Assembly (NCBI GenBank): GCA_041690355.1
Contig: JAWLHK010000029.1
Span: forward strand, 1-48,724
Origin: a bacterium
Lineage (GTDB): Bacteria > J088 > JAWLBW01
Length of the DNA: 48,724 nucleotides
Direction: 5' to 3'
Below are positions 3,267-48,600 of the stretch, one piece after another. The stretch's first letter is position 1; each line of letters starts with the position of its first letter. The notes below the pieces were generated by a model. That model made no database searches. It saw only the letters and a list, made by a program, of their open reading frames with translations, and had not been told where the DNA came from. Both the position numbers and the translations under genes were made by a program.

Positions 3267-3297
3267 CGCTCGCGACAATCTGCGGGCAGCGCGCTTC

Positions 3298-3330
3298 AAG
3301 CCCCCTCGCCATCGGCGAGGGGGCTTTTTT
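3298..3330 (+). terminator. Intrinsic (rho-independent) terminator
   Basis: Perfect 13-bp stem AAGCCCCCTCGCC / GGCGAGGGGGCTT with 3-nt loop, running into a T tract, 31 bp after the 3266 stop. Confidence 0.85.
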
Positions 3331-3506
3331 GTGGTGCGCGCGGGCATCACCCCCAAAGCGTGGAGGCTCGGAGGAATCCGCGCGAAGCCGTGGATTCCGG
3401 CTTGCCGGGCACGACTTCACCGCCGGCTCGGCGCGGTCGCTGCGCCGCCTCCCCGGATGCCGCAACCCCGGAGAGGAAACGCCTCTCCGGGACCACCCAG
3501 CGCGGC

Positions 3507-31950: not shown

Positions 31951-32099
31951 GGAAAACCCACTCTGTGCTACATTTCAGCCGTAAAGGCGGCACTCGATGT
32001 CCCTACTATAGGTCAATTCGACGCCCCCGGGAACGGCATTGCAGCTCTCGGGCGAAAGGGAAATCCGACCTTTGGGAGCGTCGTCGAATACACACAAGC

Positions 32100-32114
32100 G
32101 GGGGGGGGGGGGGG
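32100..32114. repeat. Poly-G homopolymer (15 G) in the divergent wza / fcl intergenic region
   Basis: Directly visible run of 15 G. Confidence 0.9.
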
Positions 32115-32290
32115 CAGCCCAACCTTGTGAAAGCTTCTGTCACAAGCGCAGCCTGGACGCAAGCCCCCTCCCACCGAGCGCCAGGACGTGCTATTGGACG
32201 CTCGGTTCAGCCCGACCCCGCGTGCTAAGTTGGGATCAAGGCCGACGCCTGTGTCGTCGACTGGGGATCCCAAGCACGAAACGGGGAGAC

Positions 32291-33244
32291 ATGGATAGGA
32301 ACGCAAGGGTCTTTGTTGCGGGTCACCGCGGCCTCGTCGGCTCGGCGATCCGGCGCGCGCTCGAGGCGCGGGGCTACACGAATCTGCTTCTGCGCCGTTC
32401 GCGCGAGGTCGATCTCCGCATCCGCGAAGAGGTCGACGAACTGTTCGCCGCCGAACGCCCGGAGTACATTTTTCTCGCCGCGGCCAAGGTGGGCGGCATT
32501 CTCGCCAACCGCGATTACCCGGCCGACTTCATCCGCGACAACCTGCTGATCCAGGCGAACGTCATTGACGCAGCCTGGCGCCATGACGTGAAGAAACTGC
32601 TCTTTCTCGGTTCCTCCTGCATCTATCCGCGTCTGTGCCCCCAGCCGATTCGCGAAGAGTACCTGCTGACCGGCCCGCTCGAAAGCACGAACGAACCGTA
32701 CGCCGTCGCCAAGATCGCCGGCATTCGCATGTGCCAGGCCTACAACCGGCAGCACGGCACGCGCTTCATCGTCGGCATGCCGACCAATCTCTACGGCCCC
32801 GGCGACAACTTCGACCTGGAGTCGAGCCACGTGCTGCCGGCGCTCATCCGCAAGTTTCACGAAGCGCTGCCCGACCGGCCGGTCACCCTGTGGGGAAGCG
32901 GAGAACCGCGCCGCGAGTTCCTGCACTGCGACGATCTCGCCGACGCGGCCATCCACCTCATGCTGCACTATGAGGGGGACGAGCCGGTCAACATGGGGAC
33001 CGGCGAAGACATCGCCATCCGCGAGCTGGCCAGGATGATTCAGGAAGTCGTCGGGCACCGCGGCCCCATCCACTGGGACACCGCGAAGCCCGACGGCACG
33101 CCGCGCAAATGGCTCGACGTAAGCCGGCTTCGCGAGACGGGCTGGAGTCCGCGAATCCATCTGCGCGAGGGTATCCGCAACACCTACCAGTGGTACCTTG
33201 CCTACGTCCACCGTGCGGGGAACATCGGGAAAAAAGCCGCCTGA
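32291..33244 (+). CDS. fcl: GDP-L-fucose synthase (epimerase/reductase)
   Basis: ATG 32291 after GGGGAG; VFVAGHRGLVGSA, LAAAKVGGILAN, LFLGSSCIYP, EPYAVAKIAG, MPTNLYGPGDNF, SHVLPALIRKFH, KPDGTPRK. Confidence 0.97.
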   Translation: MDRNARVFVAGHRGLVGSAIRRALEARGYTNLLLRRSREVDLRIREEVDELFAAERPEYIFLAAAKVGGILANRDYPADFIRDNLLIQANVIDAAWRHDVKKLLFLGSSCIYPRLCPQPIREEYLLTGPLESTNEPYAVAKIAGIRMCQAYNRQHGTRFIVGMPTNLYGPGDNFDLESSHVLPALIRKFHEALPDRPVTLWGSGEPRREFLHCDDLADAAIHLMLHYEGDEPVNMGTGEDIAIRELARMIQEVVGHRGPIHWDTAKPDGTPRKWLDVSRLRETGWSPRIHLREGIRNTYQWYLAYVHRAGNIGKKAA

Positions 33245-33284
33245 GCGCGCCCCGAATCCGCCATCCGAATAAGGAATCTGGAAT

Positions 33285-34691
33285 ATGAGCACAGTCAAGC
33301 ACCTGAACGTGGTGCCCGTCATTCTCGCGGGCGGATCGGGTACCCGGCTCTGGCCGCTCAGCAAGCCGGGCACCCCCAAGCAGTTTCTCTCGCTCTTCGG
33401 CGGGCGCACCTTGCTGCAGGAGACGATCGCGCGGATTCTGCCTCTGCCCGCCCGTCACCTGCTCGTCGTGACCGGCGCGGCCCAGCAGCTCGAGACCGAG
33501 GCCCAACTGCGCGACCTCGGGCTCGGGCAGGATCGGGTGACGGTGCTCGCTGAACCGTGCGCACGCAACACGGCGCCGGCCATCGCCCTGGTAGCCGCCT
33601 TTATCCGCGACCGTTTCGGGCCCGAGGCGCGGATGGTCGTCCTGCCGGCCGATCATCACGTCGGCGATGCCAACGCATTCCGCGAAACCATTCGCAAGGC
33701 GGTCGAAGAGGCCGGCAACGAGATGCTGGTGACCATCGGCGTGCGCCCGACCGGCCCGGCGACGGGCTACGGCTACATCCACGCGGCCGAGGTGCGCGAC
33801 GGGGCGGCCGATGTCCGCGCCTTTGTCGAAAAGCCTGACCGCGTGCGCGCCGAAGGGTATGTCGCGTCGGGCGACTACTTCTGGAACAGCGGCATGTTCG
33901 TCTGGACGAGCGGCACCATTCTGCGGGCGCTGGAGCGCCATCTTCCCGAAATCGTTCCCCTGCTGCGGCTTAGCTGGGAAGCCTTCTGCCAGCGTTTCGC
34001 CGAGGCGCCGGATATTTCCGTCGACTATGCGGTGCTCGAGAAAGCCGCCGGGGTGCGCATGGTGCCGGCCGCGTTTGCCTGGAGCGATGTCGGCACGTGG
34101 GACTCGGTCGTCAGCTTTCTGCGCGGCGAAGGGCGCTTCAAGCGGGCCGACGTCGAGATCGAGTGCGAGTCCATCGATGTCTTCGCGCAACGCCCGGTCG
34201 CCGTCGTCGGGCTCGGCGAGATCATCGTGATCGACGGCGATCAGGGCATCCTCATCCTCAAGAAGGGGCACGGCCAGTCGGTCGGCATGGTCGCCAAGGT
34301 CATGGCAGAGAAGATGATGGTCGAGGGTGGCGAGGGCAAGGACATCCCCCGGATTGTGCCCAAGCCCTGGGGCGAGGAGTTCATCTGGGCGCATACCCCG
34401 CGCTACGTGGGCAAAGTCCTGCGTATCCGGAAGGGCGAAAGTCTCAGCCTGCAGTATCACCGGATGAAGGATGAGACGATCAACGTCCTGCGCGGCACGC
34501 TCATCTTCCGCCACGGCCCGCATCCCGACGCGCTTCAGGAGACGCGTCTCGGCCCCGGCGAGAGCTTTCACATCCGCACGCGCACCGTGCACCAGATGGA
34601 GGCCGCCGAAGACTGCGAGATCCTCGAGGTCAGCACCCCCGAGCTCGACGACGTCGTCCGGCTGAACGACCGGTACGGAAGGGCGGCCTGA
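33285..34691 (+). CDS. manC: Mannose-1-phosphate guanylyltransferase with C-terminal cupin (PMI-like) domain
   Basis: PVILAGGSGTRLWPLS, PKQFL, EP.ARNTAPAI, LPADH, TGYGYI, FVEKPD, WNSGMF, ISVDYAVLEK, WSDVG.W; cupin KPWG...LSLQYH..KDET. Confidence 0.93.
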   Translation: MSTVKHLNVVPVILAGGSGTRLWPLSKPGTPKQFLSLFGGRTLLQETIARILPLPARHLLVVTGAAQQLETEAQLRDLGLGQDRVTVLAEPCARNTAPAIALVAAFIRDRFGPEARMVVLPADHHVGDANAFRETIRKAVEEAGNEMLVTIGVRPTGPATGYGYIHAAEVRDGAADVRAFVEKPDRVRAEGYVASGDYFWNSGMFVWTSGTILRALERHLPEIVPLLRLSWEAFCQRFAEAPDISVDYAVLEKAAGVRMVPAAFAWSDVGTWDSVVSFLRGEGRFKRADVEIECESIDVFAQRPVAVVGLGEIIVIDGDQGILILKKGHGQSVGMVAKVMAEKMMVEGGEGKDIPRIVPKPWGEEFIWAHTPRYVGKVLRIRKGESLSLQYHRMKDETINVLRGTLIFRHGPHPDALQETRLGPGESFHIRTRTVHQMEAAEDCEILEVSTPELDDVVRLNDRYGRAA

Positions 34692-35970: not shown

Positions 35971-38751
35971 TTAGGGGCAACTGCCCATGAACAGGTGCTG
36001 CTGCGCGAATTCACTGGGTCCGTCACGGAAGCTGCCGTTGAGCTGGGTGGCGATGGCGTCGAGATCTGCGAACGCGTACCCGGTGGAACCTCCACCTAAC
36101 GCCGTGTTCGCGACAGTCAGGAAGTCACGCACGCTCATGTTTGCGAGCGGTGCCGCGCCACAGATCAGCAGGTCCCCGAACGCGACTGCTGCCGTGCCGC
36201 CTGTCAAGTCGGCGTCGGAGAAGTCGATGTTAAGCTTGAGCGCGACGGTGTTGCCCCCGAACGAACCGGATGCGCTCGTAGTGGGGTTCAGAAGGTCGCT
36301 GGTCAGCGGTCCCGGTGCTCCGGAAGCGGGCAGGTATGCCGTCACGTTTGACGCGTCCAAAAACGCCATCGAGAAGCCGCTGGTCCCTAGGATACCGACG
36401 CGGAGGCCTGCGGTGGAGGAGTAGACGCTATTGAAGTGTCCGGACAGCAGGGTCTGTGCGGTCCCGCTCGTGCTCCCCCAATCCCCCTGCCCGTGCGTAA
36501 CCAAGTCGCCCGTCTCCCACCCACAGCCCGGGGCGCCGGGCGTGCACGATGGTGGTGGGTCATTGCATGGGCCGTTGACGAGGTGATTCTGCGCGAAGGT
36601 GCTGACAGAGCCACCTAAGAAAGCTGCGTTCAGCTCCACGAGGAGAGAATTGAGCTCCGCGATCGTCACACCCGCCGCCCCGCCTCCAAGGGCCGTGTTC
36701 GCCATTGCCAGGATTTCGCGGACCGTTCGATCGTTCAGCCCTTCCGCCGCAATACCGCACACTCGCAGATCTCCAAAGACCACAGCGGGACTCCCACTGA
36801 GTAGATCGGCGTCGTCGAAATCGACGTTCAGCTTCAAGGCTACAACTTCTCCACCGAAGCTCCCGGACGAACTCGTCGTCGGATCGATGAGGTCACTGGT
36901 CAGCGCGGCCGGAGCGCCGGTCGCCGGCAGATAGGACACGACGCTCTGGACGTTTTGGAACCGCATAGAGAAACCGGCAATACCGGGGATACCAACCTCG
37001 AGTACGCCGCCTGCGGAGAAGTACACACTGGCGTAGTTGGCAAGCAACAGTCGGGGTCCGGCCCCACCAGTCAGACCGGCGTCCGAGTAATCGACATTGA
37101 GTTTGAGCGCCACGATATTGCCGCCGAAGGAGCCGGACGAGGTCGTGCTGGAATCGATGTGGTCGCTCGTCAGGGCGCCAGGCGCTCCGGTGGCCGGCAG
37201 GTAGGCCGTGATGCCTGGCGCATCCACTCGTATCGAGAACCCTGTCGAGCCGGGGATGCCAACCTCGAGAACGCCGCCCGCTGCGAAATAGACTGACCCA
37301 AAGCTGTCCGAAAGCAATTTCGCGGCGATTCCACTCGTATCCCCCCAATCACCCTGCCCGAACGTCAGCAGGTAGCTCGCCGCCTCACCGGTCGAGCATG
37401 GGCCGTTGACGAGGTGCGCTTGTGCGAAGGCGCTGGGTCCGTCGCGGAAGCTGCCATTGAGCTGCAGCGCGATCGCGTCGAGATCGGCGTATGCATATCC
37501 AGTTGAGCCCCCGCCGAGCGCCGTGTTGGCGACCGCGAGAAACTCGCGCACACTCATATTGGCGAGTGGGCTTGCGCCACAGATCTGGATGTCGCCAAAG
37601 GCGACCGGCGATACGCCGCTCGGATCCAGCCAAGCTGCCTGCGAGAATGTGATGAGATCGCCCGGACTCCACCCGCATCCCGGCGTCCCCGGCGTGCACG
37701 CCGGCGTGGCCGCGACATCCACCGGGCTGCACGCGGTGAGATCCCCGCCGTTCGGCGCCGCCCCGTTGAGCCGCGCGCAGTTGGTGATCGTACCGCCGTC
37801 GGAGCCCCCGTCAACCGTCACGGTCACTGTGCCGCCTGTGGGGCCCAAGGTGAACTCGGCTTCGGAGAACGTCACCGTGCCGGTCGTCGTAATGTCTTCG
37901 AGCCCGTCCACCAGCGTCACCGCGCCGGTGCCCGGCGCCGCGCTAGGCATCTTGAGCCCGATCCGCGTGACCGCCGAGCTCACCCGCCCTTCGTCGGTAT
38001 CGATTGTTCCATTGCCGTTGATGTCCAGGTCAGGGGTGCTGTTTGCGATGGGGGCGTTGCCGTAGGTCACGAGCACCTCCACGCGGAGCGGCATGCCAGG
38101 CGCGAGCCCCAGCGCCACGGCATCAAACGCCGCCTGAAACGCCAGCGTCTGCACCACGCCTGGGCCCAGCACGATCGGCGCGGTAAGCGAAACGTCCGCT
38201 CCGGTCGCAGGATCGGTGAGCTTGAGCGGCCCCGAAGCAGCGGTCTCGGTAAACGTGCCCTTTCTCTCGCTGCTCGCCGGCGCGTGAATGAGCGCGCTGG
38301 TGGCCGCGTCACCCGCGGTGGCGTCAGCGATATCCGAGGCCACGGTGACCCACGCGTTTCCCGCCCGGCGCTGGAGGTTGACGACCAGGTTCCCGATGGG
38401 CGCGGGGGCCTCGCCCTCATTCGAGAGCGGGAGCGTGCCGTACACCACGAGCGCACCGGGGGCGACCGGCCCTTCGGTGGCGACGATGGTCCAGGTGACG
38501 ACCGAGCCAGTGAGCGCGCCCGTCTTGCTTAGGCTCCAGGTGGGGCCGGTAGACCAGGTGAGGCTGGCGGAGGCACCGCTGACCGTCAGACCAGCGGCCA
38601 AAGCCGGACTTCGTGACGGGGAAACCGGGTCGTAACGCCCCCCCAAAGTGACCGGAACGCCGAGACTTGTGGAGGACTTCTCCTGATTCTCATCTCCACA
38701 CGCGGCCACAAACAAAACCAAAAACACAAGAACGTAGATGCGGCGCAACAT
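35971..38751 (-). CDS. Uncharacterised 926-aa lipoprotein with shuffled internal repeat modules
   Basis: AGGAGG RBS, lipobox FVAAC; three copies of module A (SVY...G.L.VGI.G..GFS...YLPA.GAP..LTSD...TTS.SGSFGG..VALKLN.D..DA.L) and three of module B (FGD...CG......VR..L..ANTALGGG......L......LN..F....S.FAQ.HL..G.C); two CTPGxPGCGW linkers. Confidence 0.85.
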   Translation of the reverse strand: MLRRIYVLVFLVLFVAACGDENQEKSSTSLGVPVTLGGRYDPVSPSRSPALAAGLTVSGASASLTWSTGPTWSLSKTGALTGSVVTWTIVATEGPVAPGALVVYGTLPLSNEGEAPAPIGNLVVNLQRRAGNAWVTVASDIADATAGDAATSALIHAPASSERKGTFTETAASGPLKLTDPATGADVSLTAPIVLGPGVVQTLAFQAAFDAVALGLAPGMPLRVEVLVTYGNAPIANSTPDLDINGNGTIDTDEGRVSSAVTRIGLKMPSAAPGTGAVTLVDGLEDITTTGTVTFSEAEFTLGPTGGTVTVTVDGGSDGGTITNCARLNGAAPNGGDLTACSPVDVAATPACTPGTPGCGWSPGDLITFSQAAWLDPSGVSPVAFGDIQICGASPLANMSVREFLAVANTALGGGSTGYAYADLDAIALQLNGSFRDGPSAFAQAHLVNGPCSTGEAASYLLTFGQGDWGDTSGIAAKLLSDSFGSVYFAAGGVLEVGIPGSTGFSIRVDAPGITAYLPATGAPGALTSDHIDSSTTSSGSFGGNIVALKLNVDYSDAGLTGGAGPRLLLANYASVYFSAGGVLEVGIPGIAGFSMRFQNVQSVVSYLPATGAPAALTSDLIDPTTSSSGSFGGEVVALKLNVDFDDADLLSGSPAVVFGDLRVCGIAAEGLNDRTVREILAMANTALGGGAAGVTIAELNSLLVELNAAFLGGSVSTFAQNHLVNGPCNDPPPSCTPGAPGCGWETGDLVTHGQGDWGSTSGTAQTLLSGHFNSVYSSTAGLRVGILGTSGFSMAFLDASNVTAYLPASGAPGPLTSDLLNPTTSASGSFGGNTVALKLNIDFSDADLTGGTAAVAFGDLLICGAAPLANMSVRDFLTVANTALGGGSTGYAFADLDAIATQLNGSFRDGPSEFAQQHLFMGSCP

Positions 38752-38939
38752 GCCAGGCCTCCTGCCAACGGTCGAGCCTCTGGTCGACTTCAGTTGCTGT
38801 CAGGCTACTATCGAGGTTCAACAAAGTGGGTGGCCGCCGTATCAGTAACCGAACGTGGATTGACAACATGCCGCGGCACTTGCGTTTGTCAGGCACGGGG
38901 GGCCTTGGCTTCATGTCAGTATTGATATCGTTCTTTGGT

Positions 38940-39208
38940 GCGTCGCCGACGCACAAACCATTGGTATAGATACATGGCGAGGTCAAATCGCCACCTTTGT
39001 CGGCCGAGGCCAGATTTGAAACGGGATTTCTACACAGGACGCTCCAAGCAGGAGAATTCCTGGTCTCCGGCATCCGCGACCGAATGCCCCAATTCCCCCC
39101 AGGATGTCGCGAGTTGAGGTCACCGATCAAAATACGTTATGTCGTTTAATCTATCGAGTTGATACCGATGCGATCGTCATCCTTGACGTTTTCTCCAAGA
39201 AAACTCGT
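38940..39208 (+). pseudogene. Decayed RelE/ParE-superfamily (Gp49-like) toxin gene
   Basis: Reads SPTHKPLV*IHGEVKSPPLSAEARFETGFL.RTLQAGE...MP...GCRELR, then in another frame VTDQNTLCRLIYRVDTDAIVILDVFSKKTR. TAG at 38967-38969 replaces the expected Trp, there are frameshifts, and no intact start codon. Confidence 0.7.
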
Positions 39209-39461
39209 GCTTGGGCTGCTTCTTGATTGGCATGACGGACGAAGCTCAGTGGCGCGCCGTGAAAACCAATCTTATCAAACAGTGCTCCGCTATGCGTCCA
39301 CCTGGAGGCAGTGTCAGGCGTGGAGGCGACGGGTTACAGTACTTGTGAGAACCGGTCATGAATTCTCTTGCAGTAAGTACTTGAAGCCCTGGCAGATGAA
39401 CGACCCGAAGACCGTTCCCTGGTATGAATTGTTAAAGGGACCCAGCCGGCCTCTCCAATGC

Positions 39462-39710
39462 TTACTCATAGGTGCAAGCAACGCACCTGCTGCTCTCACA
39501 GCGGCTCTGGACCTTGCCGGGGAGAAACTCTGCACCTGTAAAGCTTCTACACCAGCATTCCGCATCAACTTTACAGTGGGTTTCAGGACCAGTCTCGGCT
39601 GGTGCCCACGCCTGTCTGGCGCCGGGTTCAGCTTTGCTGGGCCCATTGCAGCCAGGCAATGCAGCACAGATAACGGCCAAGAATAAGAGAAGAGCTGGCC
39701 CCTGACGCAT
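39462..39710 (-). CDS. Small (82 aa) Cys-rich lipoprotein
   Basis: ATG 39710 after GAGGG; signal MRQGPALLLFLAVICAALPGC; mature part has six Cys (HC-x5-C-x-C-x16-C-x4-C-x2-C). Confidence 0.6.
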   Translation of the reverse strand: MRQGPALLLFLAVICAALPGCNGPSKAEPGARQAWAPAETGPETHCKVDAECWCRSFTGAEFLPGKVQSRCESSRCVACTYE

Positions 39711-39922
39711 GACGCCCTCTGACGGCTGGCATCGGCCGCCTCCCGGAGCTGCGGTGCGAAGCACCGACCCGGAAGCAGCTCGGCTGCATGCAACGGGTAA
39801 GACATTGCTGCGCGGTTGCGCCCGGCGCAGGCCAGGTGTTGACGACGTCACATCAGGCACCCCGCATTGGGTCGGCCCCGCTGTTCGCCTCCGCAGACCT
39901 GTGTGGCCCTCATACCACAGCT

Positions 39923-40279
39923 TCACGACTTGTCTTCCCCCACAATTCGGTCACCATGGCTCGGTGGAGAAGACACAACCAAGAAGACCAAGTCCTCCAC
40001 GCCGTCGTTACGCAACTGATGCGAGACCATTGGCGGCACGGAACAACCATCGCGTGGCTTGAGATTCAGAACCTCACCTCCAACCTCCAGCGTCGCCTCG
40101 CCAGACAGTACATAGAAGAACTGATGAGCCTGACGATGATGATGACGAACTTCGCGACGCCCCGGAGGTACGCGCTCTTGGATGACGCTCAGCCCCTCAG
40201 TCTTCAGGAGATGCCAGCCATCACAATCGCCGCCCCAGTTGTAGTGCTCCGCGCAATGCTTGTTCACGACTTCTGCCAT
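39923..40279 (-). CDS. Cupin-domain protein
   Basis: AEHYNWG..CDGWHL, LSVIQERVPPG, HHH..AHQFFYVLSGEA, VPP...HQLRN. Confidence 0.9.
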   Translation of the reverse strand: MAEVVNKHCAEHYNWGGDCDGWHLLKTEGLSVIQERVPPGRREVRHHHRQAHQFFYVLSGEATLEVGGEVLNLKPRDGCSVPPMVSHQLRNDGVEDLVFLVVSSPPSHGDRIVGEDKS

Positions 40280-40497
40280 GCCACCCTCACTCTCTTCCGA
40301 GCCCTCGGTCTCGGCGAGCCGGCTGCTTTTATCACTTCACTGGTCCGCGCAAAACACCGCCTCCTCGAATCGGTACGACACTCCAATTTCGAAGGAGCTT
40401 GACGTTCCGGGTCACCGGCGGCGGCCCGGCAGTTTCCCAAGTCCTACCACATTGCTAAGCGGGCCGCCGTCCGCGCGAAGCCGGTGGTTAGCCAATG

Positions 40498-42192
40498 TCA
40501 GAGCGTGGGACTCAGTTTCTCAGCAACTTCTTTAATGAACCGCTCTCGTGGGTGCTCCCGGTAGACAAATGGACTGAAGATCATGCTATCAGGAGGCAAA
40601 GATGCGGCACTGTCTGTTGCGAGGCGTGCCCAATGGTCGCGTGAATCGTATCGTCCCAAACTGGAAGAAGCGAGAGCTGCACAAGCGTAAGCATTGGCTT
40701 GGCTCTCCAGGCTCCCAAATCCATCGACCTCTCCAAAAATGTCGAGAAACCGGGCGTACAAGCTGTTCGCCTTTCTAGGTTTACTTTTAAGGTCATAGAC
40801 GCGTGCAAGATTGAAGAGAACCCAAGCCATTTCATGACGTATAGATTCCTCGCCCTTGTCTATCGCGGAAAGTCGTCTCTCTAGGAACGACTCAGGCCAG
40901 TCATAGTTGCCCTTGGCAATCTCTGTGAGTACTAAATGGTTATGAGAAAGAGCAAATAGCTCAAATGGTTTGCTCATCCGGCCCTTTTCCACGTACCGTC
41001 TAAGGGCAACATCGTAGTAATCAACCAAAGCATCTCTTGCTAGCTTTATGGCCCTATTGTCGACGGCTTCAGCTTCACGGCAGATTTGCTTGTATCGGCT
41101 TGCACCCCACTTCCTAGGGTTGTTCGGGTTGGCGGCTACGAGCTCGGCAAGTTCGTAGAACTCCCTCAAGATGTGGGTAAGTTTGCGACTTGGATAATTC
41201 ACGAGCAACGTCTCGAGACTACTAAGCTCGGGCTCCACCGAAGTATCCGAGCGGATCTTAATAATGTAGACTCGTCGCAAGTCTCGTGCGGCAACTTCCA
41301 GAGCCCTCAGGAACGAATTGCGATTCTTCAGCTCAAGCGTATTGGATAGCGAACGATAGGATTGATAAAGCGGATCGGTCAGTTTCGCGGACAAGCCGTT
41401 GCGCGTCATTACAGGGATCGTTTCTTCGAGAGAGAGGGCTGGATAATAGTAAACAAAAATATCTGGCTCCTTCCCAAATGCTTGCACAAAGCTAGCTACC
41501 CTTTCCGTGAATAACTGCCCTTGTCCCGATGGCATTCCCGCTGGCACATTGGAAGCCACAAACACGAACGACTTTTTATCACTTGCGAGCTCCCGATAGA
41601 TGGCGGCCGTACCGTTTATATTCTGCTCATTTAGGGAGGACAGGACGACAACCTGATCAGACAAGTAGCGTGTGCAAACCCCACCGGTTTCCGTGATTCC
41701 TGTCCTAGAGTCGATTAGAACGTAATCTGGATTTTCGAACTCCTCCACGAGCTGGTTACGAAGATTTCTTAGAATAAGCTCCCCATGCTTATGCTCGAAG
41801 ATTTCTCCCCATTTCAGGCGTTCTAAACGGCTGTAATAACTTGGATCCGAGGTGTCGCCCGCGCTTATGGCATATAACGCCCCACCGTTCCCGAGCGCCA
41901 GGTGCTCGGAAAAGTCAACCGACAGTGCTTTCAAGCTGGGAAGTTTTTCTCCAAAGATGACATCATCCAAGTACTCCAAAATACCCGGGGTCCTCTCGTC
42001 GTAGCTAGACTTCAGTTTTCCTAAGTACGAGCCAAGCCCGGGCGCTTCTAGATCGAAGTCGATAGTAACCACGTGGCTACCTTGTTGCGCCAAATGGGCT
42101 GCTGTATTTACGAGGGCACTGGTGCGCCCCACGCCCCCCTTATACGAGTAAAAAGTCACAAACTGGGTTCTGATTTGTTTACCCTTGTTCAT
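40498..42192 (-). CDS. ParA/MinD-like ATPase with variant Walker A (KGGVGRT) and helical/TPR-like C-terminal half
   Basis: FVTFYSYKGGVGRTSALVN, IDFDLEAPGL, YVLIDSRTGITE, LNEQNI.G; C-terminal WVLFNLARVY...A..LY..FL.I and ANAYACAALASSSLG; visibly AT-richer than flanks; ATGA-coupled to the upstream gene. Confidence 0.85.
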   Translation of the reverse strand: MNKGKQIRTQFVTFYSYKGGVGRTSALVNTAAHLAQQGSHVVTIDFDLEAPGLGSYLGKLKSSYDERTPGILEYLDDVIFGEKLPSLKALSVDFSEHLALGNGGALYAISAGDTSDPSYYSRLERLKWGEIFEHKHGELILRNLRNQLVEEFENPDYVLIDSRTGITETGGVCTRYLSDQVVVLSSLNEQNINGTAAIYRELASDKKSFVFVASNVPAGMPSGQGQLFTERVASFVQAFGKEPDIFVYYYPALSLEETIPVMTRNGLSAKLTDPLYQSYRSLSNTLELKNRNSFLRALEVAARDLRRVYIIKIRSDTSVEPELSSLETLLVNYPSRKLTHILREFYELAELVAANPNNPRKWGASRYKQICREAEAVDNRAIKLARDALVDYYDVALRRYVEKGRMSKPFELFALSHNHLVLTEIAKGNYDWPESFLERRLSAIDKGEESIRHEMAWVLFNLARVYDLKSKPRKANSLYARFLDIFGEVDGFGSLESQANAYACAALASSSLGRYDSRDHWARLATDSAASLPPDSMIFSPFVYREHPRERFIKEVAEKLSPTL

Positions 42193-42782
42193 GCGGCTTG
42201 TTTCCGTGAACCTAGTGGACGAAAGGTCGATGACTTGGGCGTTGAGTCGAAGTCATCCTCAGTAAGGTATGGAAGCCTTTGGCGCAGCCGTATAAGGTCA
42301 CCGTCAGATTTGCGGCGAACGACAACATGCCGTTCAGCCTCAAGAGGAGAGCCCAAGACCGCCAATAGCCTTACCATATTATCAATAGACTTTGAATAGT
42401 TTGTCGTGTCTATCAATCTATAAACTTGAGAAGGGGAGGTTCCTAGACGCCTAGCAATCTCCCGGATCGAAAGCCCTGCCCCCTCAAGTGCTTCCAAAGC
42501 CCTTAGTGTTAGGTTGTATAGGAATACATTGGATACAAATTCAGGGTCGCTATTGAAATCGAGGAAGGTGTCCAGGTGAACAGAGTCTTCGGCACCCGTA
42601 TTCGTTGAATAAGTGATAGCTTCACATCCGAGTTCGATATCTACATAGGCATTCACAATCTGGACGCCCCCCTTGCTGGCCTCGCTAAGTCGCGCGTAAG
42701 GCAAGGTGAATGTCTTCCCTTCATCGGTGACTATCGTAAACAGGCGCTTCTTGTTGCTAAAGCTAGCTTTTTCTATTTTCAT
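42189..42782 (-). CDS. Putative antitoxin: DUF2442-like N-terminal domain plus XRE-like HTH
   Basis: HTH GLSIREIARRLGTSPSQVYRLID; N-terminal 'F.I.T..G.TFTLPYARL'; ATGA overlaps at both ends. Confidence 0.7.
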   Translation of the reverse strand: MKIEKASFSNKKRLFTIVTDEGKTFTLPYARLSEASKGGVQIVNAYVDIELGCEAITYSTNTGAEDSVHLDTFLDFNSDPEFVSNVFLYNLTLRALEALEGAGLSIREIARRLGTSPSQVYRLIDTTNYSKSIDNMVRLLAVLGSPLEAERHVVVRRKSDGDLIRLRQRLPYLTEDDFDSTPKSSTFRPLGSRKQAA

Positions 42783-42973
42783 AGCTGCCCCTCATTTACA
42801 AGCTCCTCAATAACCTTCCGGAGCTTCTTGTCGACGGCTCCGAGCATCACGCACTTATTTTCCAAGTCCCACTTCGCTACAAGTCGATCATCGCTGTAAA
42901 TGTGAACGTGTCGAGGAGGGTGATCAGCCAGCTGGCTGACAAAGATGTAGTTCTTTCTGCGGATTCTACCCAT
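42779..42973 (-). CDS. Small DUF4160-like putative toxin
   Basis: 64 aa with DHPPRHVHIY...AKWDL signature; first gene of the coupled operon; AGGAG upstream. Confidence 0.75.
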   Translation of the reverse strand: MGRIRRKNYIFVSQLADHPPRHVHIYSDDRLVAKWDLENKCVMLGAVDKKLRKVIEELVNEGQL

Positions 42974-42994
42974 TAAAGGACCCTGCCTCTCCTG

Positions 42995-43016
42995 ATGTTA
43001 CCATGGGCGGTAACAT
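42995..43016. promoter_or_regulatory. Palindromic operator candidate upstream of the DUF4160-HTH-ATPase operon
   Basis: Perfect inverted repeat ATGTTACC-N6-GGTAACAT about 21 bp upstream of ATG 42973. Confidence 0.65.
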
Positions 43017-43498
43017 GAATGCCATGCGGCGCAGCGAGTTATCGGGGTGTTGCCAGGCCCTTGATAGTCTGCCTTCAAATAACCGCAGAGCTTCCAAGGT
43101 CGGGCAAGCCGCATGAGGATGTGAAGCCGGCGGAAGGCACTGGCCGAACTACTGTTTATGCCCCCGATCCGCCGGAGGCCATCCACCAATTCGGGGGCCG
43201 AAGATCCCGTCCGGGCGGCTAGGTCGTTGTTTTTCGGCGGAGCGCCCCGGGATTCGCTCCCCCGAACCACGGATCTGTTATATCCCAGAGGTCAGCGGAA
43301 TTCAAACCGCCCTCGCGGCAGGCGGTCACGAAATAAGTGGGGGCGCTAAGGTGGGCAGCTGGCCCGCGGCCGCTCCGGTATCGCCCGGTGGGTGCAGGGT
43401 GGCGAGCGACCATCAGAGTAAGGTCACAAGGCCGAGCTGCCGTGGGCTAGGAAGCCCCGTTGCCGGACGCGGAAAGCCGGTCGCCCGCTTCGCCGGTT

Positions 43499-43580
43499 TG
43501 TGCAATCAATTGCACACGTGTAACTGCGCGGAACCCTTGGAAAACAGGGGGTAGAATTGACGCAAGTCGCATTGCGTCAA
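43499..43580. promoter_or_regulatory. Two perfect inverted repeats (candidate transcription-factor sites) upstream of the multicopper oxidase
   Basis: TGTGCAAT-CA-ATTGCACA (43499-43516) and TTGACGCAA-N6-TTGCGTCAA (43557-43580). Confidence 0.5.
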
Positions 43581-43898
43581 AGCGCTGGGTAGTTGGGCAT
43601 CTGTAGACGCTGTCGACCGCCCGTCCACAAAATCCGCGGAACGGCGTTCCCGGTCACGAATCCTTCGTCTCTTTTGCGCCCGCCGGGTTGCCGAGCGTTC
43701 ATTCCGTCGCCGATTGCCCTGCTGTCAAGGCTGGCAAGGCGGCGAGCCGCTGCGCGGCGTCAGAGTCGGCATTCCGATCCATACTAGCGATAGTTATCAA
43801 ATCGCCTGACACTTCGGGGCTGTTCGGGCGGCCGGATGCATTGCATTCGTGCTGTCAGTGCCCCGGGGAACGCTCACCTTGTGGACGGTAAACAAATC

Positions 43899-46211
43899 AT
43901 GGAACGGAAACGACTCTTGGGGGCAGCAGTCGGATTGGCAGTGGTCGTGGCGTGCGGACCCGACGCGAGTGATCGTCGGGTGGTCGATGGCGCGGATGGC
44001 GTGCGCCCCGCGTTCGAACACGGCGACAGTCTGCAGACACCGCTCCCGCAGAGCGCGGTTCCGCAGTTCGTGCAGCCCCTGCCGTTGCTGACCGTGCAGG
44101 GTGGTCCGCTGCAGACGGTCTCCGGCGAGCGGCCGCTGACTCTGCGGATGTGCGAGTTCCGATCGCGCATCCTGCCGCCCGGAACGCTCGGCGGCACCGA
44201 AGCGCCCGAGACGTGGGTCTGGGGCTATGTCGCCGACGACGCCTGTCCGACCGGAGCGCGGGATACCTACATTGGTCCCGTGGTCGTCGCGACGCGCGGC
44301 GTGCCCACCGAAGTGCTGTTCGAGAACAATCTCCCGAATGCCGGGGCCTCCGGCGTCGTCTTCTACCGGAACAGCCTCGATCGGACCCTCGACTGGGCCG
44401 ACCCCGAAAACGACGAGGCCAACCTCTGCGACATCCCGGGCTTCATCCCCGCCTTCGGCTCGTTCTGCGCGTCGCAGTATACGGGGCCCGTGCCCGCCGT
44501 AACGCACCTGCATGGCGGCGAGGTTCCAGCGCAGCTCGACGGGGGACCCTTTTCCTGGTTCACGGGGGATGGCGCCCATCAGGGGAGCGGCTACTATACG
44601 GCGCCGTTCCGCCAGGTGGCGGGTAATCAGGCCGTCTACCGGTATCCGAACGTGCAGGAGGCGGCGCCGCTCTGGTTTCACGACCATGCCATGGGGGTCA
44701 CGCGGCTCAACGTCTACGCGGGGCTCGCCGGCGTATGGCTCCTGACCGATCCGGCGTTGAACCTGCCGCCCGATCTGCCCGCCGCCGCCGAGACGGTGCC
44801 GCTGGTGCTGCAGGATCGCATGTTCGATACCAACGGCCAGCTCTTCTACCAGGCGAATACGAACGGAGGCATCCAGTGGGCGCCGAATCCGGATCACCCT
44901 TACTGGGCGCCGGAGATGATCGGCGATGTCATTGTCGTCAACGGCAAGGCATGGCCCTATCTCGACGTCGAGCCGCGGCGCTATCGCTTTCTTCTTCTGA
45001 ACGGCTCGCAGGCGCGTACCTTCGAGCTTTACCTCGAAGACGAAGAGACAGGGCAGCCCGGCCCGTCGCTGCACGTCATCGCCAGCGACGGTGGCTACCT
45101 CGACTTTCCCGCCGAAGTCGACCCCCAGGCGGGCGGGCGTCTGCTCATGATGCCGGGCGAGCGGTATGAGGTGCTCGTCGACTTCGGCGCGCTCTCGGAG
45201 GGGACGCGGCTCGTACTGCGGAACACGGCGGCCAATCCGTTCCCCGACGGCGATGCGCCCGAAGAGGATGCCGACGGCCGCATCGTACAGTTCCGCGTGG
45301 GGTGCGGGGCAGGCGGCTGCCCGGCCGACCTCAGTTTCGACCCGGCCGGCGGGACGCCGTTGCGCACGGGAACCCAGGCCATTCGCCGGCTCGCCGATCC
45401 GGTTTCGGGATCGCTCGCGGCCGGGACCCGGGTCGACGCGACGCGCCAGTTGACGCTCAACGAGGTAGTGAAGGACGAGTCGACGGTCGTGAATCCAGTC
45501 ACGGGCGAGCTGATCGAGTACGAAGGGGGGCCGCTTGAGGTGCTGCTGAACAACAGCGAGCTGCTCGGCATGCACCAGCGCGCGCAGGATGATTTTGTGA
45601 CGGTGAGCCTGGGCAATCTCTCGCTGGGAATTCAAGAACGGCCGCGCGAGGGGACGACCGAAGTCTGGGAGTTCGTGAATCTGACGGCCGATGCGCACCC
45701 GATTCACCTGCATCTCATCCAGTTTCAGGTCCTGAATCGCCAGCCCTTCGACCTCGAGGCGTATGAAGAGACCTACGCGGCCGCATTCCCGGCCGTTCCC
45801 GGGCGTCCGGAATGTACCGGCGGGGTGTACTGTCCGGAATACGGGCCGCCGCTAGACTATCGGGCCGGAAATCCCCGGGCGCTCGGCGGCAACCCCGACG
45901 TCGTGCCCTTTCTCATGGGGCCCGCGGCGCCCCCCGAGGCCTGGGAGGCGGGGTGGAAGGATACCGTCATCGTGCCGCCCGGAGCGGTAACACGCCTGGT
46001 CGCGCGATGGGCGCCGGTCAATCTGCCGGTCGACACGCCGAGCCCGGATCTCTACTTCGCCTTCGATCCGTCGGCCGGGCCGGGGTACGTCTGGCACTGC
46101 CACATTCTCGACCACGAAGACAACGAGATGATGCGGCCGTACAGGGTGCTGCTGAACCCCGAAGCGCCCAAGCCGCCGCTGCGGCCGTACGTGCAGGGGG
46201 TCGATTACTGA
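43899..46211 (+). CDS. Multicopper oxidase (CotA/bilirubin-oxidase-like), lipoprotein
   Basis: ATG 43899 gives lipobox VVVAC; all four Cu motifs present: HLHG, WFHDH, HPIHLH, WHCHILDHEDNEMM. Confidence 0.93.
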   Translation: MERKRLLGAAVGLAVVVACGPDASDRRVVDGADGVRPAFEHGDSLQTPLPQSAVPQFVQPLPLLTVQGGPLQTVSGERPLTLRMCEFRSRILPPGTLGGTEAPETWVWGYVADDACPTGARDTYIGPVVVATRGVPTEVLFENNLPNAGASGVVFYRNSLDRTLDWADPENDEANLCDIPGFIPAFGSFCASQYTGPVPAVTHLHGGEVPAQLDGGPFSWFTGDGAHQGSGYYTAPFRQVAGNQAVYRYPNVQEAAPLWFHDHAMGVTRLNVYAGLAGVWLLTDPALNLPPDLPAAAETVPLVLQDRMFDTNGQLFYQANTNGGIQWAPNPDHPYWAPEMIGDVIVVNGKAWPYLDVEPRRYRFLLLNGSQARTFELYLEDEETGQPGPSLHVIASDGGYLDFPAEVDPQAGGRLLMMPGERYEVLVDFGALSEGTRLVLRNTAANPFPDGDAPEEDADGRIVQFRVGCGAGGCPADLSFDPAGGTPLRTGTQAIRRLADPVSGSLAAGTRVDATRQLTLNEVVKDESTVVNPVTGELIEYEGGPLEVLLNNSELLGMHQRAQDDFVTVSLGNLSLGIQERPREGTTEVWEFVNLTADAHPIHLHLIQFQVLNRQPFDLEAYEETYAAAFPAVPGRPECTGGVYCPEYGPPLDYRAGNPRALGGNPDVVPFLMGPAAPPEAWEAGWKDTVIVPPGAVTRLVARWAPVNLPVDTPSPDLYFAFDPSAGPGYVWHCHILDHEDNEMMRPYRVLLNPEAPKPPLRPYVQGVDY

Positions 46212-46280
46212 AGGCCGGCGCCCCGGGAAGACAAACGGTTCCCCCTCGTGCGCAGGTTTACAGGATAGGGAACCGGGCTT

Positions 46281-47141
46281 CTACTCTCGCTCGTAGATGA
46301 GCACCGTGACCGTTGCCGTGCCCGTTTCGCGGGATATCCTGACCTGGTGCAGCACCGCGTCGACGTCGAGGTCGCCGTCACCCTCGAGGTCGACCCCGAC
46401 GCGCTTGTCGAGCGTGAGTTCGGTCGTCGTCATCGGCCCGTGGCCCCATTCGTCGACGCATTCCGAATAGCGGGGGCGCTTTTCTTCGGTCGTGATTTCG
46501 AAGTACGGAAACGAGCGCGAGCCGCCGAGCGAGTACTCGATGCGTATCCGGCCGCCCGTTTCTTCGAGGTAGGCGGCGTAGATGCTCGGGTGGTCGGGAT
46601 AGGCGGCTTCGACCTGCTTCGTACACGCGTCAAGAACGGGCGCGATGTCGTACAGCACGATGGGGCCCTCGGCCTGGCTGGAGATGGTGAGGGTGTTGAG
46701 CAGATTTCCCGCCGGTTTTTCCGAGGGGGCAACGCCCCAGGGATCTTCCTGGACGGCAGCGATCGAGCCTCCGTCGGCAGAGGCCGAGCCGGGATCGCGA
46801 AGGTGCGCGGTCACCTTGTCGCCTTCGATTTTTTCGATGAGAACGACCAGATCGGCCGCGCCGTCGCCGTCGAGGTCGACCTGCTGCGGTTTGCCGACGC
46901 TGAAGGACTGAATGACCGGCTCCGACTCGATCTGCAGCACGGCCCGATCGGTGTAGACCTCGAGCACTGTGAAGGTATGCTGCTCGTCGCCCAGAGAGAG
47001 AACCTGCGGCGCGCCCAGGGTGAGCGTGACCTTGCGATCGAAGACCGCCTGGCCGGAGTCGTCCACGGGGTCGCAGGCGGAAGTCGAGAACGCGATCGCC
47101 GCGAAAAGAACCGCGAAGAGGCGTGGGCAGAGGCGGATCAT
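46281..47141 (-). CDS. Lipoprotein of unknown function with two DxDGDGxxD-type Ca-binding loops
   Basis: Signal MIRLCPRLFAVLFAAIAFSTSAC; VDLDGDGAADLVV and VDLEGDGDLDVDAV. Confidence 0.75.
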   Translation of the reverse strand: MIRLCPRLFAVLFAAIAFSTSACDPVDDSGQAVFDRKVTLTLGAPQVLSLGDEQHTFTVLEVYTDRAVLQIESEPVIQSFSVGKPQQVDLDGDGAADLVVLIEKIEGDKVTAHLRDPGSASADGGSIAAVQEDPWGVAPSEKPAGNLLNTLTISSQAEGPIVLYDIAPVLDACTKQVEAAYPDHPSIYAAYLEETGGRIRIEYSLGGSRSFPYFEITTEEKRPRYSECVDEWGHGPMTTTELTLDKRVGVDLEGDGDLDVDAVLHQVRISRETGTATVTVLIYERE

Positions 47142-47234
47142 GTCATGCACCGGATTGTCGAGTGGTTGCGGGCGGGACGCCCGGGGGCCGGATGGGAACC
47201 GGGTTGGTTGCGGGGCCAGTGGGGGAGCACAACG

Positions 47235-47264
47235 ATGCTAGCAGCGCGGCACCGGGATTGTCAA
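47235..47264 (-). promoter_or_regulatory. Sigma-70-type promoter for the 47141 lipoprotein gene
   Basis: Minus strand reads TTGACA-N18-TAGCAT with extended -10 TG. Confidence 0.6.
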
Positions 47265-47361
47265 CACGCCGCTTCTCCGCCCCGGCCGTCCTTCTACTGC
47301 CGCCCGGAGGCCCGCATCCGATATACTGATGGGACTCCTTGTTTTCCGGCGGAGACCCTGC

Positions 47362-48600
47362 GTGAAACCGATCGCCCAATCCAGCAAGCTGCGCAACGTC
47401 TGCTACGACATCCGGGGACCCGTGCTCGAAACGGCCCGCCAGATGGAAGAGGAAGGGCAGAAGATTCTCAAGCTGAACATCGGCAACCTCGCGGCCTTCG
47501 GCTTCGAGGCGCCCGAAGAGATTCAGCAGGACATGATGCGGAACCTGCCGTCTTCGGCCGGCTATTCGGATTCCAAGGGGATCTTCGCCGCGCGCAAGGC
47601 CGTCATGCAGCAGGCGCAGCAACAGGGCGTTCCGGGGGTGACTCTGGAGGATATCTACCTGGGGAACGGCGCGTCGGAGCTCATCACGCTCGCCACGAAC
47701 GCGCTCCTGAACCCCGGCGACGAAGTCCTGATTCCCGCGCCCGACTATCCGCTGTGGACGGCCGCCGTGAGCCTCTCGGGCGGGAAACCGGTGCACTATC
47801 TCTGCGACGAGACGAAGGGGTGGATGCCCGATCTGGAAGACATCGAGCGCCGCATCACGCCGCAGACGCGCGCCATCGTCATCATCAATCCGAACAATCC
47901 GACGGGCGCCGTCTACTCGCGCGACGTGCTCCAGCAGATCGTCGAGATTGCCCGCCGGCACGAACTCGTCGTGTTCGCCGACGAGGTCTATGACAAGGTG
48001 TTGTATGAAGGCGCCGTGCACGTCCCCATCGCGTCGCTCTCCGACGATGTCTTCACCGTCACCTTCAACAGCCTTTCGAAGAGCTACCGCTCCTGCGGAT
48101 ACCGGTCAGGCTGGATGGTCGTGTCGGGGAACAAGAAGGCCGCGAAGGATTACATCGAAGGGCTCACGCTGCTCTCGTCGATGCGCCTCTGCGCCAACGT
48201 GCCGGGGCAGTACGCGATTCAGACCGCGCTGGGCGGATACCAGAGCATCCAGGATCTCGTCGGCGAGGGGGGCCGCCTGCGGCGCCAGCGCGATCTGGCC
48301 TGGGAGCTGCTCACGGCCATTCCGGGGATCACGTGCGTGAAGCCGCAGGCGGCGCTGTACCTGTTCCCCCGCCTGGATCCCGAGGTGTACCCGATCGCGA
48401 AGGACACCGAATTCATCCGCGAGCTGCTCGTCGACGAACGCGTCCTCGTCGTGCAGGGGACCGGCTTCAACTGGCCGCGCCCCGACCACATGCGCATCGT
48501 CTTTCTGCCCTACGAGGAGGAGCTGCGCGACGCCATCGGGCGGATGGCGAGGTTTCTCGAGAAGTACCGAAGTCGCGCGGCGGCGCCGGCGGGAGTCTAG
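47362..48600 (+). CDS. alaA: PLP-dependent class I aminotransferase, AlaA-like alanine transaminase
   Basis: GTG 47362 after GGAG; SSKLRNVCYDIRGPV, LKLNIGN, GYSDSKGIFAARKA, GNGASELI, INPNNPTGAVYS, DEVYDK, SKSYR..GYRSGW. Confidence 0.93.
   Translation: MKPIAQSSKLRNVCYDIRGPVLETARQMEEEGQKILKLNIGNLAAFGFEAPEEIQQDMMRNLPSSAGYSDSKGIFAARKAVMQQAQQQGVPGVTLEDIYLGNGASELITLATNALLNPGDEVLIPAPDYPLWTAAVSLSGGKPVHYLCDETKGWMPDLEDIERRITPQTRAIVIINPNNPTGAVYSRDVLQQIVEIARRHELVVFADEVYDKVLYEGAVHVPIASLSDDVFTVTFNSLSKSYRSCGYRSGWMVVSGNKKAAKDYIEGLTLLSSMRLCANVPGQYAIQTALGGYQSIQDLVGEGGRLRRQRDLAWELLTAIPGITCVKPQAALYLFPRLDPEVYPIAKDTEFIRELLVDERVLVVQGTGFNWPRPDHMRIVFLPYEEELRDAIGRMARFLEKYRSRAAAPAGV

Follow-up and report, generated by a model that had tools for sequence, protein, structure and literature searches.

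A predicted DUF4160-type member of the TA-ParA class, with an antitoxin tail modelled on its KGGVGR ParA-like ATPase

The closest described relatives of the locus reported here are the toxin-antitoxin (TA)-ParA ternary 'apoptosis' systems of the ConB2 ParA clade, which were put forward on 22 Oct 2026 in a computational study by Li, Burroughs & Aravind (bioRxiv 10.64898/2026.10.19.760177). As outlined in the main text of that preprint, the ConB2 ParA assemblage is marked by an Arg that replaces the Walker A Lys and by a PG motif after sensor-1, and its TA-ParA systems combine a type II TA pair with a ParA protein fused to a sensor, mostly of the TPR type, in a conserved gene order. Sensing of an invader is proposed there to reorganise the TA complex and free the toxin, and TIR-ParA systems are presented as sisters. 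The toxins named fall into six types, namely C-N hydrolase, ART, BECR RNases (including MqsR, HigB and Gp49), REase, Pol-beta NTase and papain-like (bioRxiv 10.64898/2026.10.19.760177). We analysed a three-gene cassette at positions 40498-43016 of contig JAWLHK010000029.1, a stretch of 48,724 nucleotides (nt) from a bacterium of the GTDB lineage J088 that is referred to in full as the window. An initial annotation, made from the sequence alone, had proposed the cassette as an undescribed three-gene conflict system; the class had in fact already been defined as TA-ParA (bioRxiv 10.64898/2026.10.19.760177), and on the strength of its sequences we place the cassette within this described class as a DUF4160-type member.

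Parts of the same plan are also found in other systems. DhiTA of Dickeya dadantii 3937 is a validated DUF4160/DUF2442 TA module for which the published account gives the toxin gene as the first of the operon, growth inhibition by the overexpressed toxin and repression of the promoter by the complex (PMC8198452). DUF4160 is described, moreover, as an effector domain of Menshen NsnC-like proteins and as having no structural homologues (PMC12065111). In toxin-antitoxin-chaperone (TAC) systems, a C-terminal element of the antitoxin (ChAD) that carries aromatic patterns is reported to be recognised by a chaperone, with a phage tail protein as competitor (bioRxiv 10.1101/2024.02.24.581848). The parts of the window cassette, given by window position and by residue of the respective protein, are the following.

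42995-43016, no strand assigned: perfect inverted repeat ATGTTACC-N6-GGTAACAT, exact, candidate operator for the helix-turn-helix (HTH) protein
42779-42973, minus strand: gene 1, an open reading frame (ORF) call of 64 amino acids (aa)
42189-42782, minus strand: gene 2, ORF call, 197 aa
42192-42287, minus strand: C-terminal tail of gene 2, residues 166-197, LRQRLPYLTEDDFDSTPKSSTFRPLGSRKQAA, proposed ParA-docking element
40498-42192, minus strand: gene 3, ORF call, 564 aa
41587-42168, minus strand: ParA-like NTPase domain of gene 3, residues 9-202, with Walker A K18-G-G-V-G-R23-T-S, D45-x-D47 followed by P51-G52, and D161-S-R-T-G165
40603-41394, minus strand: helical repeat (TPR-like) putative sensor domain of gene 3, residues 267-530, all-helical in the model

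The three genes are closely packed and conserved as a unit, and together with the candidate operator they take up 2.5 kb. Both junctions are 4-nt overlaps (gene 1/gene 2 at 42779-42782 and gene 2/gene 3 at 42189-42192) that read ATGA on the coding strand, as the initial annotation had described for its three minus-strand genes. The likeness to TA-ParA systems, as the preprint's main text presents them, lies in the KGGxGR Walker A, the PG after a DxD, the fusion to a putative C-terminal sensor, which in the window is a helical, TPR-like array, the operon with a TA pair, the conserved gene order and a proposed switch that frees the toxin. The window differs in its DUF4160-like toxin, which is outside the six main-text types, and in a divergent C-terminal array that misses the Pfam TPR cut-offs. 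The main text of the preprint makes no mention of DUF4160, DUF2442, BrnA/BrnT or a 'C-terminal tail', though its supplements may list them, and the three uses of 'C-terminal extension' in it concern ParA and START domains (bioRxiv 10.64898/2026.10.19.760177). With DhiTA, as published, the window shares a toxin gene that comes first and is overlapped by the antitoxin gene, a small DUF4160-type protein with a His motif, and an expected autoregulation by the complex; DhiTA has two genes, whereas in the window gene 2 lacks a Pfam DUF2442 match, bears both an HTH and a tail, and precedes an ATPase gene. Neutralisation of a DUF4160 toxin by the product of the downstream gene is known only from Dickeya DhiTA (PMC8198452).

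The gene order recurs in other genomes. A metagenome scan with the ATPase returned 80 loci, three of them close (L089, L090 and L091). Locus L090 has the same three-gene order, at 57% identity for gene 1, 44% for gene 2 and 48% for the ATPase, as does L089 at 48% (in a gene 1 fragment), 44% and 41%, and these two are the only close metagenome relatives with genes 1 and 2 upstream. In the same positions, L091 carries a 127-aa protein and a Zn-ribbon/HTH MqsA-like protein, then the ATPase, and this layout is repeated at the Bdellovibrio bacteriovorus locus L009 and at a locus on a Rhizobium gallicum plasmid, the record of which annotates the upstream gene as an MqsA-family antitoxin. The order is found with canonical domains at L013, from an Opitutaceae metagenome-assembled genome, where DUF4160 (58.2 bits) and DUF2442-HTH_3 (66.1 bits) proteins precede a KGGVGR-TPR ATPase. 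The check on recurrence proposed in the initial annotation was positive at L089, L090 and L013, and the same loci contradict the scenario, raised there as a refutation, in which homologs of the ATPase are never linked to DUF4160/HTH pairs.

For a broader comparison we used 162 KGGVGR loci, 144 of them non-redundant at 90% ATPase identity, and took as upstream ORFs those on the same strand that end -200 to +40 nt from the next start, a heuristic that may admit spurious ORFs in GC-rich DNA. Among 148 first-upstream ORFs, Pfam identified MqsA_antitoxin in 47, HTH_3 in 41, TIR_2 in 27, BrnA_antitoxin in six and DUF2442 in one; among 138 second-upstream ORFs, it identified DUF6932 (8), Gp49 (3), DUF4160 (2) and HigB (1). 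An antitoxin-type gene lies directly upstream in 37/37 non-redundant loci nearest to the window ATPase, being MqsA-like (Zn-ribbon + HTH) in 32, another HTH type in four (L089, L090, L013 and the truncated L106) and BrnA-like in one. In a maximum-likelihood tree of the ATPase N-domains, the window, L009, L091, L090 and L089 fall into one clade with support of 100/100, within which DUF4160-type and MqsRA-type cassettes interleave, while L013 belongs to another clade and the BrnA-type L101 to a third. Because the cassette types interleave and L013 and L101 are placed elsewhere, TA pairs have been swapped on the ATPase scaffold more than once.

Pfam gave no family at E<=0.1 for the MqsR-position proteins of L009, L091, L014, L010 and L170 (113-130 aa), and the label 'MqsR-like' derives from the MqsA partner and from a by-eye reading of the sequences. 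Read by eye, the toxin-position proteins of MqsA-linked cassettes make up several small families with a shared C-terminal hYhKh ... S[FC]H pattern. We also observed TIR-domain proteins directly upstream of KGGVGR ATPases (L075, L059, L045 and others), which correspond to the TIR-ParA class of the preprint, and a second recurrent KGGVGR cassette at 24 loci (L127, L128, L125, L129, L132, L163, L131 and others), in which a 275-300-aa protein and then a ~205-aa non-HTH protein stand upstream. The ~205-aa proteins of L163 and L131 end in 'FP'-containing tails.

Gene 1 scores slightly below the gathering cut-off of Pfam DUF4160 (PF13711; E 1.8e-4, 22.1 bits against 23), and its L090 orthologue (57% identity) reaches 29.5 bits. 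Alignment with hhalign links it to the canonical DUF4160 protein of L013 at E 0.0016. A word-based homologue search with gene 1 recovered only gene 1 itself; a profile from the three available gene 1 sequences, run against 1.84 billion proteins, recovered 312 representatives at E<=1e-3, with a typical length of ~64 aa. When the window protein and the 111 best profile matches were scanned, 63 of these 112 sequences had a DUF4160 match at E<=1e-3. Near-invariant positions of the family are D17-H18-x-P20-x-H22-V23-H24 and K34, the first of which coincide with the DHPPRHVH motif that had been pointed out earlier and is present at residues 17-24. From these comparisons we conclude that gene 1 represents a short, divergent DUF4160 subfamily and a putative toxin, and the profile search and the score of the orthologue bear out its first description as DUF4160-like. 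With respect to DhiT, the putative toxin of the window differs in that it belongs to a subfamily of short proteins (64 aa) on the margin of what the Pfam model covers.

Gene 2 is predicted to consist of a beta-rich, six-stranded N-domain (residues 1-77), an HTH of the Xre/HicB type (residues 86-153) and a poorly ordered tail, in a model with a predicted local distance difference test score (pLDDT) of 79. Its Pfam matches are of HTH type only (residues 94-148), and by structure comparison the HTH is closest to the HicB3 antitoxin 6u0i_A (Z 11.9, root-mean-square deviation 1.1 over 64 residues). The N-domain aligns with 3k8r_B at Z 8.1 and with BBOX1/DUF971 N-domains at Z 7.5-7.9, a range that the tool rates as common. 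Pfam DUF2442 (PF10387) has no match to gene 2 at E<=1 and does not appear among the 25 of 41 families shown for 20 gene 2 relatives, and an assignment of gene 2 to DUF2442 was not supported. Indirect links exist through the DUF2442-HTH protein of L013 (hhalign, E 0.012) and through the fold matches of the N-domain. Of the earlier description as a DUF2442/HTH antitoxin, the antitoxin-type HTH protein stands, and the DUF2442 part is left with no Pfam match. A sequence search of the PDB with gene 2 found nothing below E 0.04, and Foldseek found no match to the model at E<=1e-3, with NE0471 (2auw_A) appearing only at E 0.11. Gene 2 gave no match against plasmids, one HTH-only match against viral contigs (L171) and no ParB family match in Pfam.

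The C-terminal tail sets gene 2 apart from most of its family. Sixteen of 20 aligned members are proteins of 154-173 aa that stop right after the HTH and lack the tail, and a tail of ~32 residues is present in the remaining four, namely the window protein, L089, L090 and P0122 (near-identical to L090). All three tail bearers with known context (window, L089 and L090) precede the ATPase. Moreover, the C-terminal motif of these tails, [KR]x[KR][FLY]xY[LV][ST][DEQ]x[DEQ][FIL]...P..S.[FLP], is also found at the end of the MqsA-type proteins of L009 and L091, the N-domains of which are unrelated. When a hidden Markov model of the five tails was run against the ORFs of 160 loci, only L089, L090, L009 and L091 matched (E 2e-15 to 3e-21), with the next best at E 0.035. 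In MqsA-like and BrnA-like partners at a greater distance, the tail is looser and consists of two boxes, FPxL ... FTxLM. The broad tail motif is found in the last 60 aa of 23/37 sequences, compared with 3/37 in each of two control segments. The gene 2 tail and its sharing with MqsA-type antitoxins of the same ATPase clade appear to be new.

Gene 3 matches NF047398 with 164 bits (cut-off 90), and its motif at residues 18-23 agrees with the KGGVGR ParA-like ATPase of the initial annotation. The model of gene 3 is of high quality (pLDDT 89.6, predicted template modelling score 0.85), and residues 9-289 align with MinD 4v02_A at Z 24.9, with ParA 8ray_A at Z 23.6 and with MinD/ParA/Soj structures in general at Z 21-25. 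In 27 full-length homologues, the nucleotide-site residues are invariant, including K18 and R23 (the Arg in place of the Walker A Lys), as are D45, D47, P51 and G52 of the segment D45-F-D47-L-E-A-P51-G52 and the motif D161-S-R-T-G165. The second half was described at first as TPR. Its helical, TPR-like nature is supported by the model and by homologues at 28-31% identity over 97-98% of the gene 3 length, which carry many Pfam TPR families; the protein itself stays under the Pfam TPR cut-offs (TPR_12, E 0.0021), and residues 381-564 align with TPR proteins at Z 12.5-13.1, borderline values where helical repeats are concerned.

Full-length relatives of gene 3, at 33-45% identity, are almost all metagenomic. 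Among ATPases that are closest in the N-terminal half, those with a named host come from predatory or intracellular bacteria, namely Bdellovibrio, Candidatus Berkiella and Legionella. A single-protein pattern scan of genome contigs with the ATPase gave 491 pattern matches and no relatives. Viral contigs yielded one distant match (L169), and plasmids yielded 35 records, none of which covers 80% of the query (coverage of at most 59%). Within PADLOC, the KGGVGR domain resembles PDC-M28B (E 5e-31), in a match that spans only positions 126-320 of the 438-position profile; PDC-M28A was found neither in genes 1 and 2 nor in the 148 upstream ORFs. Membership in PDC-M28 was rejected, given a domain-level match to the B component only and an A component that was not found. 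We found no paper that uses either of the terms 'KGGVGR' and 'PDC-M28'.

We modelled the complex of the whole ATPase with residues 150-197 of gene 2, using an alignment of our own. Complex scores were 0.77, 0.75 and 0.75 against 0.17 for the best control, with a pLDDT of 70 for the partner and at least 93% of contacts shared between runs; in calibration, 58/80 solved complexes and 2/110 mismatched pairs reached the mark. Modelled contacts involve tail residues 166, 169-174 (L170-P-Y-L-T174), 177-178 (D177-F178) and 181-192 (T181-S192), and on the ATPase residues 128-150, 165-175 and 197-201, a surface that belongs to the NTPase domain and not to the repeat domain. The model supports a placement of the tail (L170-P-Y-L173 ... 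F187) on the ParA domain, where it would run along helices 128-151 and the segment that follows the D161-G165 motif, and this placement appears to be a new result. The best-defined contact, N143, is kept in 85% of 34 TA-linked ATPases compared with 9% of 111 other KGGVGR ATPases, and L139 is kept in 68% compared with 9% of the same sets.

The explanation that we favour, with moderate confidence, is a three-component TA-ParA system in which a type II TA pair is joined to a ParA-clade NTPase fused to a TPR-like sensor, and in which these parts work as a switch. We hypothesize that gene 1, as a DUF4160/DhiT-like protein, would be a growth-arresting toxin that gene 2 neutralises, with gene 2 also repressing the operon, possibly at the palindrome. 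At rest, the ATPase would hold the toxin-antitoxin complex by way of the antitoxin tail. A signal derived from an invader might then meet the TPR-like domain and lead the ParA domain to change its nucleotide or dimer state, which would pull on or release the tail, free the toxin and cause the infected cell to stop growing. The earlier suggestion that the ATPase gates the TA pair has good comparative support, in that it fits the conservation of gene order and the swapping of TA pairs on one ATPase clade, and it fits the modelled contact of the tail.

A more specific form of this hypothesis, which we offer tentatively, is that the tail may be a portable 'ParA-addiction' element. Such a short bipartite peptide, with an FPxL-type box and a second aromatic box, would dock on a clade-specific NTPase surface (W128, L139 and N143) and in this way connect any type II TA pair (DUF4160/HTH, MqsRA-like or BrnTA-like) to a KGGVGR ParA-TPR sensor. 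The sensing of an invader would then lead to release of the toxin through nucleotide-dependent capture or release of the tail.

A number of points weigh against the three-component switch. At the level of the class, TA-ParA was put forward from comparative genomics only, in a preprint that is computational, and the independent DUF4160-type contexts found besides the window amount to only three (L089, L090 and L013). Gene 1 falls just under the DUF4160 cut-off, and its toxicity is extrapolated from a distant relative; the Arg in the Walker A motif may leave the ATPase with little or no hydrolysis. With regard to the tail, the genomic contexts cover three of the four bearers and none of the 16 tail-less relatives, and the count of the broad motif is post hoc, the motif having been defined after inspection of the sequences. 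As for the modelled contact, the tail columns of the complex alignment come from only four sequences, the contact residues are overall no more conserved than the rest of the domain (0.65 compared with 0.63), and the score may in part reflect likeness to solved ParA/MinD-peptide complexes. Lastly, the 10 neighbouring ORFs belong to polysaccharide-export, sugar-nucleotide, multicopper-oxidase and aminotransferase families (Pfam), that is, to housekeeping and not defence.

The tail and the modelled contact would also be accommodated by a TAC-like addiction tripartite TA, which we consider unlikely, in which the tail destabilises or insolubilises the antitoxin unless the ATPase-TPR holds it and the toxin is freed by titration of the ATPase (e.g. 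by a phage competitor), with no nucleoside triphosphate switch. As in HigBAC and CmdTAC, it is a portable C-terminal extension of the antitoxin that links the third gene to TA families of various kinds, with TA warheads exchanged as modules. The window tail is such an add-on, rich in conserved aromatic and hydrophobic positions and portable among MqsA-type, BrnA-type and DUF2442-position antitoxins, in parallel with the recognition of ChAD by a chaperone and the phage competition reported for TAC (bioRxiv 10.1101/2024.02.24.581848), and the complex model lends support to a tail-ATPase contact. The third component of TAC is, however, a SecB-like chaperone, whereas in the window it is a ParA/MinD-fold NTPase-TPR with an invariant nucleotide site, on which the modelled contact falls within the NTPase domain rather than the repeat domain; the main text of the preprint, moreover, argues that the ParA architecture is a theme distinct from TAC (bioRxiv 10.64898/2026.10.19.760177).

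The relationship of the ATPase to MinD, ParA and Soj structures brings in a partition-like or regulatory module, an improbable reading to our minds, according to which the HTH protein would be a small ParB-like adaptor at the palindrome, the tail would stimulate the ATPase, the module would position or stabilise a mobile element or tune the operon, and gene 1 would have an accessory role. Contacts between ParA-type ATPases and flexible tails of their partners are known, and the TP228 ParA-ParB entry 5u1g and the MinD-MinE entry 3r9j were among our structure matches. Like ParABS, ParFG and MinDE, the window ATPase has the fold, the signature lysine K18 and a flexible tail modelled on the ATPase domain, and the low-GC islet around the cassette and the three recombinase-like ORFs beside the L089 cassette also speak for this reading. 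These likenesses are countered by the replacement of the Walker A Lys by Arg (R23) in every homologue, by the fusion of a ~300-aa TPR-like sensor domain to the ATPase, by sister ATPases that pair with TIR, caspase or trypsin-like genes, and by upstream pairs that belong to recognised TA antitoxin families. Moreover, most loci are chromosomal or metagenomic, with 35 plasmid records of which none covers 80% of the ATPase, no ParB family protein was identified, and 16/20 relatives of the HTH protein are without the tail. Membership in ParABS or type I partition was rejected on the Walker A that ends in R23, on gene 2 having no ParB match and on plasmid matches of at most 59% of the ATPase.

Chance adjacency of an ordinary two-gene DUF4160/HTH pair and an unrelated KGGVGR ATPase, to which the short and probably two-gene forms of most antitoxin relatives would lend themselves, as would a tblastn search with genes 1 and 2 at 80 genome ATPase loci that found only HTH-level matches (L054 and L075) and missed the divergent L013 pair, is highly improbable in view of the 4-nt overlaps at both junctions, the order kept in L089, L090 and L013, the antitoxin-type gene at 37/37 nearest loci and the confinement of the tail to ATPase-linked forms among members with known context, and we excluded it on the recurrent gene order and the exchange of TA pairs on the ATPase clade.

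In the three-component system that we favour, the palindrome at 42995-43016 might serve the HTH protein. The repeat is exact, as first reported, and ends 22 nt upstream of the first ATG, beside a AGGAGAGG stretch. It is only mildly unusual: when the 120 nt upstream were shuffled 20,000 times, 1.4% of the shuffles held a perfect inverted repeat of 8 nt with a spacer of <=10 nt, as do 16/406 120-nt tiles of the window, and three further perfect 8-nt inverted repeats lie within the 401-nt region of the palindrome. A search upstream of the palindrome gave no sigma-70 consensus promoter. A role as operator of the predicted HTH protein is plausible but statistically weak. We observed at positions 24-29 of L090 the sequence TGTTAC, the core of a palindrome arm, which precedes the GTG start codon of the gene 1 orthologue with 2 nt (bases 30-31) in between; the L090 contig ends 23 nt upstream of TGTTAC, and the sequences of L089 and L090 stop at gene 1 or within it.

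The cassette lies in an islet of low GC content, at 0.47-0.52 over 40600-43000 compared with 0.61-0.71 at 36000-38600 and 43000-48600, in agreement with the AT-richness noticed initially. Other features of the islet and of its surroundings are the following.

39020-39226, plus strand: degenerate fragment of a Gp49/HigB-like toxin (Pfam Gp49, E 0.005; 17.3 bits, cut-off 23.9)
39923-40279, minus strand: intact 118-aa Cupin_2 protein (E 1e-18), in the low-GC islet between the Gp49-like fragment and the cassette
28568-34691 and 43836-48600: neighbouring genes for Wzz/GNVR/BY-kinase-like, Poly_export+SLBB, epimerase, NTP_transferase-cupin, multicopper oxidase and aminotransferase proteins

The Gp49/HigB-like fragment, which like the cupin gene lies within the islet, has a broken frame and no intact partner. 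It is the sole basis for the 'other TA remnants' claimed initially; one such remnant can be named, and it scores below the family cut-off. The comparison with defence islands did not hold, as the neighbours are housekeeping genes and PADLOC matched among them only the P-loop of the BY-kinase-like protein, with no defence family; the surroundings are a polysaccharide and housekeeping context and not a defence island. No direct repeats of >=13 nt flank the islet, no Rfam elements were found over 38400-43900, and there are no tRNA genes in the whole window. An ATPase homologue at E<=1e-20 was not found in the 40 other genomes searched, including one genome of the same family (97% complete). Horizontal acquisition of the cassette fits with its low GC content and with the ATPase not being found in those 40 genomes. 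At L089, three consecutive ORFs that read as tyrosine recombinases (427, 325 and 445 aa; positions 2601-5934) follow directly after the cassette, which suggests carriage on a mobile element.

The locus adds a DUF4160-type member to the TA-ParA class, together with a specific and falsifiable modelled contact, that of tail residues 170-173 and 187 with the ATPase helix 128-151. If this contact holds, it would explain the repeated capture of unrelated TA pairs by one sensor scaffold and would open the switch model to a direct test with point mutants. More generally, were the tail indeed portable, it would correspond, on a ParA basis, to the ChAD element of TAC systems and would provide a rule by which hybrid systems might be built or predicted.

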